Assembly (NCBI RefSeq): GCF_055900595.2
Contig: NZ_CM148325.1
Length of the DNA: 64,000 nucleotides
Reading direction: 5' to 3' (one strand)
A model generated the notes under the pieces. The model ran no database searches. It was not told the origin of the DNA and was given only the letters and a program-made list of their open reading frames with translations. The translations under genes and the position numbers were made by a program. Each line of letters opens with the position of its first letter. Within the stretch, counting starts at the first letter, position 1. Below are positions 10,618 through 16,375 of the stretch, in pieces.

Positions 10618-11658
10618 ATGACTGGTCAGTCTTCATCTCAGGCGGCAACGCCCATTCAGTGGTGGAAACCCGCGCTTTTCTTTCTCGTTGTCATTGCCGG
10701 ACTTTGGTATGTGAAATGGCAACCTTACTACGGTAAAGCCTTTACTGCCGCCGAAACTCACAGTATCGGTAAATCTATCCTTGCGCAGGCGGATGCTAAT
10801 CCGTGGCAAGCTGCGTGGGACTACGCGATGGTCTATTTCCTCGCGGTATGGAAAGCGGCGGTACTGGGGGTGATCCTCGGGTCGTTGATTCAGGTGCTGA
10901 TCCCTCGTGACTGGCTGCTACGCACGCTGGGGCAATCGCGCTTTCGCGGCACGCTGCTGGGAACGCTGTTTTCGCTGCCGGGCATGATGTGTACTTGCTG
11001 TGCGGCACCGGTCGCGGCGGGGATGCGTCGCCAACAGGTGTCGATGGGCGGGGCGCTGGCATTCTGGATGGGCAATCCGTTGTTAAACCCGGCGACGCTG
11101 GTGTTTATGGGTTTTGTCCTCGGCTGGGGCTTTGCGGCGATTCGTCTGGTGGCGGGACTGGTGATGGTGTTGCTGATTGCGACCCTGGTGCAAAAATGGG
11201 TGCGTGAAACACCGCAAACACAGGCACCGGTCGAAATTGACATGCCGGAAGTGCAGGGCGGATTCTTTAGCCGCTGGGGTAGGGCGCTATGGACGCTTTT
11301 CTGGAGTACGATCCCGGTATATATCCTTGCCGTACTGGCGTTGGGTGCCGCTCGCGTCTGGTTATTCCCCCATGCCGATGGTGCTGTCGATAACAGCCTG
11401 ATGTGGGTGATTGCGATGGCGGTAGCGGGATGCTTGTTTGTCATTCCCACGGCAGCAGAAATTCCGATTGTACAAACGATGATGCTGGCAGGTATGGGAA
11501 CCGCTCCGGCGCTGGCATTGTTGATGACGCTTCCTGCTGTAAGTTTGCCGTCGCTGATAATGTTGCGTAAAGCGTTCCCGGCGAAAGCCTTATGGCTGAC
11601 GGGTGCGATGGTGGCGGTGTCTGGTGTGATTGTCGGCGGGCTGGCGCTGTTGTTCTGA
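10618..11658 (+). CDS. yraQ: Inner-membrane permease YraQ (346 aa)
   Basis: Hydrophobic multi-pass protein; translation recognised as YraQ. Confidence 0.9.
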   Translation: MTGQSSSQAATPIQWWKPALFFLVVIAGLWYVKWQPYYGKAFTAAETHSIGKSILAQADANPWQAAWDYAMVYFLAVWKAAVLGVILGSLIQVLIPRDWLLRTLGQSRFRGTLLGTLFSLPGMMCTCCAAPVAAGMRRQQVSMGGALAFWMGNPLLNPATLVFMGFVLGWGFAAIRLVAGLVMVLLIATLVQKWVRETPQTQAPVEIDMPEVQGGFFSRWGRALWTLFWSTIPVYILAVLALGAARVWLFPHADGAVDNSLMWVIAMAVAGCLFVIPTAAEIPIVQTMMLAGMGTAPALALLMTLPAVSLPSLIMLRKAFPAKALWLTGAMVAVSGVIVGGLALLF

Positions 11659-11675
11659 TTTGAGGGAAAACATGT

Positions 11676-11858
11676 CGGATGCGGCGTAAACGCCTTATCC
11701 GACCTACGGTTTGCATCGTTGTAGGCCTGATAAGACGCGGCAAGCGTCGCATCAGGCAACGGCAGTCGGATGCGGCGCAGGCGCCTTATCCGACCTACGG
11801 TTTGCATCGTTGCAGGCCTGATAAGACGCGGCAAGCGTCGCATCAGGCATTACAAGGC
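11676..11858. repeat. Tandem pair of about 91-bp REP/BIME units
   Basis: gatgcggcg…cttatccgacctacggtttgcatcgttg[t/c]aggcctgataagacgcggcaagcgtcgcatcaggca occurs twice head-to-tail; ORF-track artefacts on both strands repeat the same peptides (MRRKRLIRPTVCIV…, MRRLPRLIRP…). Confidence 0.8.
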
Positions 11859-11862
11859 GTTG

Positions 11863-12438
11863 TTATTTAATGAACGTAAACGCCGTGGTTACCCGCTTCA
11901 CGCCGCTTACCCGGCTGGCAATATCTGCCGCCGCTTTCGCTTCACGTTCAGTCACCAGCCCCATCAGGAACACTTCACCGTTTTCGGTGGTCACTTTCAC
12001 GTTGGACGATTTCACCAGGTCGCTGGTTAAGAGCTGCGAACGCACTTTGGTGGTGATCCACGTATCGTTAGACGCTTCGCCCAGACCAATCGGCTGGCCC
12101 TGACGAATCTCGTTATACACTTCGTTGGCACCGTCTACGCCCATAGCAATCTGTTTGGCGCGAGCCGAAAGTTCAGCGTTTGGTGACTGCCCAACCAGCA
12201 GCACTTTGCCCTGATAGGCCGTTACATTAATGCGAGCTTCTTTCTTGATTTGTTCGTCTTTCGACAATGCGCTGTTCACGCGCACTTCCAGGGTTCCATC
12301 ATCCACCTGGGTGCCGACACTGCGTGGGTCAGTTGCGGCTTTTGTACCCACAGCCGCGGTGCCCACTACGGCGGCAGCAACGCAACCTTGCAACAGCAGT
12401 GCGGAAATAAGGACTGCGATTGGCGATAATGCCTTCAT
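11863..12438 (-). CDS. dolP: Outer-membrane lipoprotein DolP (YraP), dual BON domain (191 aa)
   Basis: Signal peptide with lipobox LLQGC; translation recognised as YraP. Confidence 0.9.
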   Translation of the reverse strand: MKALSPIAVLISALLLQGCVAAAVVGTAAVGTKAATDPRSVGTQVDDGTLEVRVNSALSKDEQIKKEARINVTAYQGKVLLVGQSPNAELSARAKQIAMGVDGANEVYNEIRQGQPIGLGEASNDTWITTKVRSQLLTSDLVKSSNVKVTTENGEVFLMGLVTEREAKAAADIASRVSGVKRVTTAFTFIK

Positions 12439-12447
12439 GTATTCTCC

Positions 12448-13038
12448 TTAAACATCCTGGTGAGGGAAAAGCGTGTTATCGATCAGATCGCACAAGCAAT
12501 TTACCGTCAGCATATGCATTTCCTGAATGCGAGCACTACGATGCGAAGGAATGCGGATCTCCACATCCTGTGGCCCTAACAACCCTGCAAGTTCACCGCC
12601 GTCATAGCCAGTCAATGCCACAATGGTCATATCACGCGTAACAGCAGCTTCTACTGCTTTTACGATATCGCGGCTGTTGCCACGGGTGGAAATGGCTAAC
12701 AACACATCTCCCGCATGCCCCAGCGCCCGCACCTGTTTTGCATACACTTCATCATGTAAGCGATCGTTGGCAATCGCCGTTAAGACAACATTATCAGTAT
12801 TTAGTGCAATGGCAGGTAAGCTGGGCCGCTCCGTTTCGAAACGGTTGATCATGCTGGCAGCAAAATGCTGTGCATTGGCAGCGGAAGTTCCATTACCACA
12901 ACAGAGGATTTTGTTGCCATTGAGCAGAGACTGAACCAGCGTCATGGCTGCACGGGAGATGGCATCCGGAAGCGCCTCTGCTGCCGCAATTTGAGTTTGA
13001 ATGCTTTCAGTGAAGCAAGCTTTAATTCGTTCTTGCAC
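12448..13038 (-). CDS. diaA: DnaA initiator-associating protein DiaA (SIS domain; 196 aa)
   Basis: Translation recognised as DiaA/YraO. Confidence 0.9.
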
Positions 13039-13057
13039 GCTAATCCTTAAACCTTAA

Positions 13058-13453
13058 TTATGAGTGGTCATTAAAGGCATCCTTAATCCACTCAACTTCA
13101 TTCCCGGTGAAGGCTACCACATCGAACCGGCAATCCACAGTATCAAAACTCCCATTATGACGCGCGAGCCACAAGCGGGCAGTCTGTAATAATTTGTGTT
13201 GTTTGCTGCGGGTCACACTGGCTGCCGCACCACCGTAAAGGGCTGAGCGGCGGTAACGCACCTCGACAAAAACGGTGGTCCTGCCTTCACGCATTATCAG
13301 ATCGATCTCGCCGCCACGCTCGTTCACGTTAGCGGCGACAAACCGCAGTCCTTTGCTCTCCAGCCAGCGACGCGCTTGTGCTTCCCACGCATCGCCGGTC
13401 TGTTTAGTGGTTAACTGGCGGGGACTACCTGACCTTGTTGGTACTGTAGCCAT
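13058..13453 (-). CDS. yraN: UPF0102 family protein YraN (131 aa)
   Basis: Translation recognised as YraN; annotated start overlaps the lpoA 3' end by 43 nt. Confidence 0.8.
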
Positions 13454-15447
13454 GATAACTTCCTGTTAATTACGCAATCCGGGTTAGCCGTCAGACTTCC
13501 GGTATTACCGTTGATTTCGAAACCCTGAACCTGGCGCATCTGTGAGAAATGATTTGCCAACGACCAGGCATCAACGCCCATCGCATACATGCGAGCCAGC
13601 GAATAATCGTTATTCACCGCACTGAGCGCCTGCTGCATTAATGGCAGATTACCGCCTGCCAGCATCGGGATTTCGCTATATTGCAAACCTTCCATTTCCA
13701 GACGGAAATCCGGACCCGCGGTGCCTTGTGCGCTGCGGGAACTGGCGTACAGCGTTGCACCACTCTGGCTACCGTTACGCATGGCGATCATCGGTTTGAT
13801 AAAAGCGATTTCACCCGGCGTTGCCACAATGTACACCGCATCGACACGACCGCCATTATTGGTGAACTGGTCATCGGTTGGCGTGGTTTGCAGCATTGGA
13901 TTGTTGGTCGTTATGCCTGAATCGGTTGTCGCTCTGGGAGTAATCGGGCTACCGGTTAAAGCGATACCAGAACCACCGTTAACTCCCGCGCGTAATTCGC
14001 TGGTGGAACCAAATTTTTGTTGCAAAACGGTGCCGCCGCCCAGCTTCTGCCACTCTTGCGCAAACGCATTGGCTACGCGATCGCCCAGCGAACTGCGAGG
14101 GATCAGCACCAGTGGCGCTTGTTTACCCTGGTCACGAATATGACGCGCTGCATCGCGCGCTTCGTCTTCCGGTGAAAGCGCGAAGTAACAAATATTGACG
14201 CGGTTTTCGATATTTTCCGGCTGGTTCAGTGCCAGCACGTTCAGCGGGGTGTTGCTTTTCAGTAACTCTTCAACGTTATTTTTCAGCAACGGACCGACCA
14301 CAATACTCGCGCCATCCTGCTGAACCTGGCTTAATATCTGGCTAAGCGGTTGTGATGAGGTATCATAAATTTTCAGCTCTGCGGATGGATTCGCGGGGGC
14401 GCTTACCGCCGCAGTGCTTGCCGCCGGGGCGCTTACAGGCACTGGTTGAGCCGCGGTTTCTTCGCCTGTCAGATCGCTAACCGAGGCTTGTGCCGGGCTG
14501 GCAACGCCGTCAACAGTTTGCTGCAGGGGTTGTTCTGCAACGTCTGCGATTGGTGCGGCAGTTGCCTGTGCCGCCACTGGCTGAGTGCCGATATTTTTCG
14601 CCGCTTCAAAGCCTTGCTGAATAGTGCGACCAAATACCGCTGCCTGGCCATTCAGTGGCAACAGCAGGGCGATTTTGTTGGTTGACGCTGGTTTAAATGC
14701 TTTTACGTTTACCAACTGCGTAGGCAGCATTTTCGCGCCCGGGTTGTTCGGATAACGTTTCTGCCAGTCGGCGATCCCAGCTTTCATCATGCCGGGATCG
14801 TTACGGTTATCAAACCAGACGCGCTGCAGATCAAGCCAGCCTTGCAGAATATTTTCGTCGGCGTTGATCACCAGCGTATTCGCCTGGTCCTGAGTCATGG
14901 AGGAGAGTGCCTGCCATGTAGCATCAATATTCTGTTGCTTTTCTTTCGCGCCGAGCAGGGGTTCCTGAGCAATTAAGGCGCGCAGTAAATCAATGGAAGG
15001 ACGCCCCTGACTGGCATCGATTTTTGCCTGCCAGTAACGCGCCTGCTGGTTTTGATCTAAATCGGCAGGTGTGATTTTCGCCAGCAGGGTTTGTGCGCCA
15101 GCAAAATCTTTCTGCGCCAGCTTAATTTCTACTGCCAGAAGAGTTTTCTCGCGACGCTGGTAATCGTTCAGTTCCTGCGGCAGTTGGTTAAACAGCTCCA
15201 CCGCCTGCCCGGTTTTACCTTCTTTCACCAGTGCACGAATGGCGAGTAATTGCCAGTTGATCCTGGTATCATCAGCGCTTTGCTGCATCTGCTGAAGATA
15301 AAAGGCAGAATCAGCCTGCGCCGTGCCCTGCATATAGGCAGTGGACTGATCGGGAGTATGGGTGCCACAACCGGCGAAAATCAGGGCTGCCAGAACAACA
15401 GGCAGACAACGCGCGGCTTTCAAACGAGAAAATGTTGAGGGTACCAT
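13411..15447 (-). CDS. lpoA: Penicillin-binding protein activator LpoA (678 aa)
   Basis: Lipoprotein signal (LIFAGC) plus TPR-like N-domain; start placed at MVPSTFSRL (15447) rather than the ORF-track ATG at 15477. Confidence 0.9.
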
Positions 15448-15511
15448 AATGTATCCAGTGATATTTTTTTTACGCAATGCTCAATATTAAATCGGCAATA
15501 CGGACGACACA

Positions 15512-16375
15512 ATGAAACAACACCAATCGGCGGATAATTCTCAGGGCCAGCTTTACATTGTACCGACGCCAATCGGCAATCTGGCAGATATCACCCAGCG
15601 TGCGTTGGAGGTTTTACAGGCCGTTGATCTGATTGCCGCCGAGGATACGCGTCATACCGGTTTACTGCTGCAACATTTTGGAATTAACGCCAGGTTGTTC
15701 GCCTTGCACGACCATAACGAACAACAGAAAGCCGAAACGTTACTGGCGAAGCTGCAGGAAGGGCAAAACATTGCGCTGGTGTCCGATGCCGGAACGCCAC
15801 TGATTAACGATCCCGGCTATCATCTGGTGCGTACCTGCCGAGAAGCGGGGATTCGCGTGGTGCCACTACCGGGGCCGTGTGCTGCTATCACTGCATTAAG
15901 TGCTGCGGGTTTACCATCCGATCGTTTTTGTTATGAAGGTTTCCTGCCTGCCAAATCAAAAGGCCGTCGTGATGCGCTAAAAGCCATTGAAGCGGAGCCG
16001 CGTACGCTGATTTTTTATGAATCCACCCACCGTCTGTTAGATAGCCTGGAAGATATCGTTGCTGTGCTGGGTGAGTCCCGTTACGTGGTGCTGGCGCGTG
16101 AGCTCACCAAAACCTGGGAAACCATTCACGGCGCGCCCGTTGGCGAGCTGCTGGCGTGGGTCAAAGAAGATGAAAACCGTCGCAAAGGTGAAATGGTGCT
16201 GATTGTTGAAGGCCATAAAGCACAGGAAGAAGACTTACCTGCCGATGCCCTGCGCACGCTGGCGTTGTTACAGGCTGAGCTTCCGCTGAAGAAAGCGGCG
16301 GCGCTGGCAGCAGAGATTCACGGCGTGAAAAAAAACGCGCTGTATAAGTATGCGCTGGAACAGCAGGGGGAGTGA
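15512..16375 (+). CDS. rsmI: 16S rRNA (cytidine1402-2'-O)-methyltransferase RsmI
   Basis: Translation recognised as YraL/RsmI; divergent from lpoA. Confidence 0.9.

Follow-up and report, generated by a model that had tools for sequence, protein, structure and literature searches.

The 43-nt overlap of lpoA and yraN in Escherichia coli and the conserved Shine-Dalgarno sequence ahead of the yraN start

The annotated yraN gene of Escherichia coli begins inside the 3´ end of lpoA, which raises the question of where its translation truly starts and how ribosomes reach that start. A preliminary description of this DNA had offered two answers: either the two genes are translationally coupled through a long overlap, or yraN in fact begins further downstream, at a codon other than ATG. 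We addressed the question by examining the geometry of the overlap, its conservation across species, the proteins encoded on either side, and the corresponding junction in other lineages. The stretch analysed (hereafter the window) comprises 64,000 nt of contig NZ_CM148325.1 from RefSeq assembly GCF_055900595.2, and the source region is E. coli chromosome; of 5426 complete E. coli genomes, 5424 contain a match to an 801-nt query (window 12900-13700). Our analysis leads us to conclude, with good confidence, that the ATG at 13453 is the true yraN start, that the 43-nt overlap is real, and that yraN initiation is most likely directed by a Shine-Dalgarno sequence within a ribosome-binding site embedded in lpoA.

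Genes and geometry of the overlap

Exactly this lpoA/yraN overlap is found in the RefSeq/PGAP annotation of an E. coli genome with a 100% match to the 801-nt query. That the E. coli overlap is genuine is therefore already implied by the reference annotation, and comparative support is what we add here. LpoA matches the Pfam LppC family (PF04348; 451 bits, E=7.6e-135), well over the cut-off, and has homologues of known structure (PDB 3CKM/5KCN). YraN matches UPF0102 (PF02021; 89.8 bits, E=1.5e-25), over the curated cut-off, as well as TIGR00252 (202 bits), and likewise has a homologue in the PDB (3FOV). The features discussed below are collected in Table 1.

Table 1. Positions of genes and signals at the lpoA-yraN junction, in window coordinates
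Feature	Position	Strand	Description
lpoA CDS	15447..13411	minus	678 aa, activator of penicillin-binding protein 1A; RefSeq annotation
yraN CDS	13453..13058	minus	131 aa, UPF0102/YraN PD-(D/E)XK endonuclease
diaA	13038..12448	minus	start codon GTG
dolP	12438..11863	minus	
lpoA/yraN overlap	13411..13453	minus	43 nt, out of frame; LpoA residues 665-678, YraN residues 1-14
yraN initiation region in lpoA	13441..13467	minus	lpoA codons -18 to -10: AAC AGG AAG TTA TCA TGG CTA CAG TAC
In-frame TAA opening the yraN frame	13468-13466	minus	4 codons 5´ of the ATG; read from sequence
Shine-Dalgarno AGGA	13464-13461	minus	7 nt 5´ of the yraN ATG; built from LpoA Arg662 (AGG) and Lys663 (AAG)
yraN start ATG	13453-13451	minus	no earlier start codon in the ORF; the A of the ATG doubles as wobble base of LpoA Ser665 (TCA)
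lpoA stop TAA	13413-13411	minus	sequence and RefSeq

The preliminary description had placed the overlap at 13411-13453, coordinates that agree with both the sequence and the RefSeq annotation, and its statement that yraN is read in a different frame from lpoA was confirmed from the sequence. The first position of each yraN codon is the third position of an lpoA codon; on the minus strand the lpoA frame reads ...ATT AAC AGG AAG TTA TCA TGG CTA CAG... and the yraN frame reads TAA CAG GAA GTT ATC ATG GCT ACA GTA... Given the in-frame TAA four codons upstream, the ATG is the first possible start, and a longer YraN N-terminus is impossible. The predicted yraN ribosome-binding site consists of the AGGA, a 7-nt spacer and the ATG, all within the last 18 lpoA codons, and the initiation region in Table 1 spans the Shine-Dalgarno sequence, the spacer, the start codon and the next four yraN codons.

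The remainder of the operon is tightly packed too: the spacer from the yraN stop (13058) to the diaA start, a GTG (13038), is 19 nt long, and 9 nt follow the diaA stop (12448) before dolP begins (12438). A simple consensus scan of positions 12900-14400 returned no sigma-70-like site, a weak test with 1.1 sites expected by chance; the result points, if only weakly, to yraN probably being read from the lpoA transcript. At its other end, the lpoA frame holds an in-frame TTG 10 codons 5´ of the annotated ATG (window 15447-15477), which gives a mechanical ORF of 688 aa as against 678 aa; RefSeq uses the ATG, not the upstream TTG. On the plus strand, a 64-aa ORF (13275-13469) lies antisense to the overlap. 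It falls wholly within two well-supported minus-strand genes and was taken as mechanical. An Rfam search of positions 11500-15700 at E<=1 yielded only REP/naRNA4 elements, near 11664-11893. This cluster of REP-type repeats is located between yraQ and dolP, and consists of one copy that matches naRNA4 (RF02564) at 70.7 bits, above the gathering score, and four weaker copies, with both strands represented. The repeats also give rise to mirrored mechanical ORFs starting MRRLPRLIRP and MRRKRLIRP.

Conservation of the shared sequence

The junction was compared across at least 80 loci from a scan of one genome per species, to which nine more were added by exact-protein look-ups. No named Yersiniaceae, Hafniaceae, Pasteurellaceae, Vibrionaceae or Pseudomonadaceae were in the scan, a gap filled in part by L085-L088. 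The yraN start lies 43 nt before the end of lpoA in at least 37 loci, and the length of the overlap is identical in all 37. This set covers Escherichia, Citrobacter, Enterobacter, Klebsiella, Raoultella, Kluyvera, Lelliottia, Atlantibacter, Siccibacter, Superficieibacter and others, and also takes in Erwinia, Acerihabitans and one further genome.

Among the 37 loci listed, the start codon is ATG in 32, GTG in three and TTG in two, and is never CTG. The first base of this codon falls on the wobble position of an LpoA Ser or Thr codon, which is four-fold degenerate and, as far as LpoA is concerned, free to vary. What is found at this base in the listed loci is A (32), G (3) or T (2) and no C, that is, only substitutions that preserve a start. 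The AGGA is present at 7-nt spacing in 37/37 of these loci. For AGGA to be invariant, the rare Arg codon AGG is needed at the position of LpoA Arg662, and this codon is AGG in all 34 of the non-redundant loci listed, as compared to 6 of the 857 other Arg codons (0.7%) in the same lpoA genes. Despite the kinship of the loci, this difference is hard to explain other than by selection on the DNA sequence.

Synonymous diversity was measured along the final 70 codons of lpoA, over which the alignment is free of gaps. Codons -18 to -10, which in most species read AAC AGG AAG TTA TCA TGG CTC AAA TAC, showed the lowest diversity of all sliding windows, with a mean synonymous pair difference of 0.11 versus 0.45 in the other 58 degenerate codons (Mann-Whitney p=3e-5, a value that is indicative only and overstates independence, since the 34-37 loci are phylogenetically related). 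Some of the low synonymous variation 3´ of the ATG may be due to constraint on YraN residues 2-5 and not on initiation. Judged from these comparisons, the conservation of the ATG and the Shine-Dalgarno sequence clearly exceeds chance and indicates nucleotide-level selection at the site; selection on otherwise silent lpoA positions holds the yraN ribosome-binding site in place. Such conservation marks the site as selected, and is silent on how ribosomes reach it.

The two proteins differ in how strongly the shared stretch is conserved. For LpoA, the last 14 aa, which belong to its C-terminal domain, have a mean pairwise identity of 0.83 among the 35 loci listed, and the C-terminal fragment aligns to the Haemophilus influenzae LpoA structures 3CKM/5KCN up to residue 328/329 (the second-last). 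As the C-terminus is conserved and is present in solved homologues, the lpoA stop is correctly called, and a 3´ extension of lpoA, or a mis-called stop, is ruled out as the cause of the overlap. For YraN, residues 2-14 have a mean pairwise identity of 0.61 versus 0.76 for the core. Matches to family models and structures begin at residue 10 (TIGR00252), 14 (PDB 3FOV), 15 (NF009150) or 24 (Pfam), and the family core starts at about residue 16-20. An alignment of 85 sequences identified G20, E24, E49, D51, E64, R68 and K84 as invariant, with a stretch of approximately 0 to 25 residues before G20/E24. The comparison of YraN N-termini across species, which the preliminary description had proposed as a check, thus gives a start position that is constant in the 37 loci listed, followed by a variable tail and a core from about residue 16-20.

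An AlphaFold2 model of YraN (mean pLDDT 89.9) is consistent with this division. Residues 1-15 are predicted to be coil, with a mean pLDDT of approximately 63 for residues 1-10, and the first helix begins at residue 16. The order of elements in the model is helix 16-33, in which G20 and E24 sit, strands 37-68, helix 82-98 and strands 107-127. The residues encoded by the overlap (1-14) thus form a variable and probably disordered N-terminal tail outside the nuclease fold, ahead of the PD-(D/E)XK core. Because the tail precedes the nuclease core, the overlap should cost YraN little, while LpoA keeps its conserved C-terminus. A permissive YraN tail placed over a constrained LpoA C-terminus is a cheap form of sequence sharing.

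One E. coli protein entry (P0004, a 160-aa "YraN family protein") has the LpoA C-terminus joined to YraN from RQLTT. This is the expected result of a +1 C insertion in the CCCC run at window 13420-13423, within the overlap. The frame fusion could represent either genuine variation or an error in the sequencing.

Routes to YraN and the junction in other lineages

How do ribosomes arrive at the ATG? With a conserved AGGA at optimal spacing and no conserved inhibitory RNA structure, Shine-Dalgarno-directed initiation is most likely, and we infer that it occurs de novo rather than depending on translation of lpoA. A 30S subunit would bind the Shine-Dalgarno sequence directly on the lpoA-yraN-diaA-dolP mRNA and initiate in the other frame. 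Coupling of yraN to lpoA translation is possible, and nothing in the sequence data would require it. A search of the text supplements of TRAINSPOTTER N-terminomics, INRI-seq, Salmonella riboproteogenomics, TetRP and Giess et al. 2017 for yraN, lpoA, yraM and b3148 gave no mapping of the yraN start or N-terminus; as we found no published mapping of the E. coli yraN start, our conclusion rests on comparative sequence evidence.

The alternative that survives best uses the same start codon and differs in mechanism only. Under this model, termination-reinitiation is the main route: ribosomes that end at the lpoA stop move back about 40 nt to the ATG, such that YraN depends on LpoA synthesis. Tight lpoA-yraN junctions are found in many other Gamma- and Betaproteobacteria, the coat-lysis pairs of phages fr and MS2 are coupled at spacings of -38 and -50 nt (PMC12548453), and the simple scan for sigma-70-like promoters in the 3´ part of lpoA, by finding none, probably places yraN on the lpoA transcript. 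However, coupling is most efficient at spacings of -4 to +3 nt and falls off faster with a larger overlap than with a larger gap (PMC12548453), and about 20 nt nearly abolishes coupling in E. coli (PMC10666635). The lpoA/yraN spacing of -43 nt lies far outside this range, and a strongly conserved, optimally spaced Shine-Dalgarno sequence is the signal required for initiation de novo. We therefore consider reinitiation unlikely to be the main route.

The arrangement of the junction in other lineages, with start choice in distant loci deduced from ORF structure, bears on a broader version of coupling. Among the loci listed, a 4-nt NTGA overlap is present in L050, L053, L058, L059, L062, L077 and L079, and a 1-nt TAATG overlap in L085. 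Other overlaps in this list are 14, 17, 23, 38, 47 and 62 nt long, and L087 has an annotated 80-nt overlap, with alternative in-frame starts downstream. Elsewhere in the list the genes are separated by gaps of 3-26 nt, or by longer ones in Thalassolituus (42 nt), Providencia (39 nt) and Morganella (78-79 nt). In the Morganellaceae (L036/L037 from Morganella and L083 from Providencia), there is no overlap; following the spacer of 39-79 nt, yraN has its own ATG and encodes 120-126 aa. The -43 arrangement is thus not universal within Enterobacterales.

Three Pectobacteriaceae loci differ again. In Brenneria goodwinii, Brenneria tiliae and Lonsdalea, the homologous start codon is CTG and the Arg codon is CGG or CGC in place of AGG. 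As both changes occur in the same three loci, the start and the Shine-Dalgarno sequence have been lost together, which provides a natural control. yraN itself is intact in these loci, with the catalytic residues conserved (L082:2144-2570 for B. goodwinii, L089:2438-2570 for Lonsdalea and L090:2450-2570 for B. tiliae), and hence the -43 site is dispensable in some lineages. Neither Brenneria species has an in-frame ATG, GTG or TTG anywhere before the YraN core, and the sole canonical in-frame option in Lonsdalea is a TTG 63 nt 5´ of the CTGA. Public annotations of yraN in these loci conflict, giving either 131 aa (CTG at -43) or 118 aa (CTG on the lpoA stop, CTGA). The yraN start in these loci may be a non-canonical reinitiation site.

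Taken across these lineages, the forms of the junction suggest that joint translation with the upstream LppC-family gene is the ancestral state, to which enterobacteria added a strong Shine-Dalgarno sequence of their own. In a more far-reaching model, the junction would be an evolutionarily mobile initiation site that is kept within reach of lpoA-translating ribosomes, whether as NTGA, TAATG, an overlap of 14-62 nt, or -43 plus a Shine-Dalgarno sequence; in Brenneria and Lonsdalea, reinitiation on a CUG (or AUC) at the lpoA stop would be the sole source of YraN, and E. coli would keep a partial dependence. In that case, the YraN recombination nuclease could not be made without translating an activator of cell wall synthesis. 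We regard this model as speculative and rather improbable.

A third possibility is that a hairpin sequesters the yraN ribosome-binding site until lpoA is translated or terminated, as in MS2. With a spacing of -43 nt, a ribosome that pauses on the lpoA stop codon would indeed leave the yraN ribosome-binding site unoccluded (the argument made for MS2, PMC12548453). We detected no stable or conserved inhibitory RNA structure over the site, neither in a shuffle test of the E. coli sequence (-33.3 versus -33.6 kcal/mol for shuffled sequence, z=0.07) nor in a 17-species alifold consensus (-1.43 kcal/mol, 0 compensatory pairs). Based on the z-score and the negligible consensus structure, a sequestering hairpin was rejected and this type of regulation is very unlikely.

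The least tenable reading, which we give almost no credence, is that yraN starts at a non-ATG codon 3´ of the lpoA stop and the ATG at 13453 is a gene-caller artefact: although most members of the YraN family start only about 3-10 residues ahead of the conserved G, PGAP puts the start on the lpoA stop in Brenneria and Lonsdalea, and Morganella and Providencia use an ATG 3´ of lpoA, the yraN codon that overlaps the lpoA stop in E. coli is TTA, codons 15-30 (ACC ACT AAA CAG ACC GGC GAT GCG TGG GAA GCA CAA GCG CGT CGC TGG) include no ATG, GTG, TTG, CTG or ATH, and a start at any of the next candidates, CTG31, GTG43 or ATG54, would leave YraN without the helix that bears the invariant G20 and E24. 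The conservation of both the start codon and the Shine-Dalgarno sequence would also lack an explanation. The preliminary description was right that there is no early in-frame ATG, the next canonical starts being the GTG at codon 43 and the ATG at codon 54, both within the conserved fold. Of its two alternatives, the long overlap stands, given the conserved start and Shine-Dalgarno sequence, and the downstream non-ATG start is rejected for E. coli, as neither a start codon nor a near-cognate codon occurs between the lpoA stop and the YraN core.

Significance and comparison with known systems

A start inside lpoA, as we favor, means that the 131-aa YraN and the 43-nt overlap in annotations of E. 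coli and its close relatives can be trusted. It also means that the yraN ribosome-binding site and the first 14 codons of yraN lie within the last ~18 codons of lpoA. Removing lpoA in a "clean" deletion, or recoding it by codon optimisation, would therefore shut yraN off or change it. This point has become more relevant with the recent proposal, from work on Legionella, Acinetobacter and Vibrio, that YraN is an ssDNA endonuclease that partners ComM and resolves the D-loop during natural transformation (preprint 10.1101/2024.02.06.579203); the overlap with lpoA is not discussed in that preprint.

Among known systems, coupling over negative spacings of this length has precedents only in the coat-lysis pairs of phages fr and MS2. 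They resemble lpoA/yraN in their stop-start spacing (-38/-50 nt) and in the use of a different frame. However, the lysis start in these phages is activated by termination at the coat stop, via back-scanning or hairpin unfolding, whereas no inhibitory structure is predicted or conserved at lpoA/yraN, which, unlike the phage pair, has a strong and conserved Shine-Dalgarno sequence. The NTGA and TAATG motifs of termination-reinitiation pairs are used by the LppC-family gene and yraN in the eight loci named above, in contrast to E. coli, where the spacing is -43, not -4 or -1, and lies outside the efficient range of that mechanism.

With respect to the UPF0102 family (PF02021), E. coli YraN is recognised by the family models and has the invariant acidic and basic residues in place, and its approximately 10-14 extra N-terminal residues relative to those models are exactly the part encoded inside lpoA.

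The closest likeness is to ordinary co-directional overlapping gene pairs. The lpoA/yraN overlap is longer than usual for these, as more than 80% of gene overlaps are <30 bp, and -4 and -1 dominate (PMC12548453, PMC10666635). In other respects lpoA/yraN reveals no new mechanism and is an annotated case of a known kind: as in other such pairs, two real and conserved genes lie on one strand in different frames, the upstream ORF contains the ribosome-binding site of the downstream gene, and the embedded signals constrain silent sites of the upstream gene.
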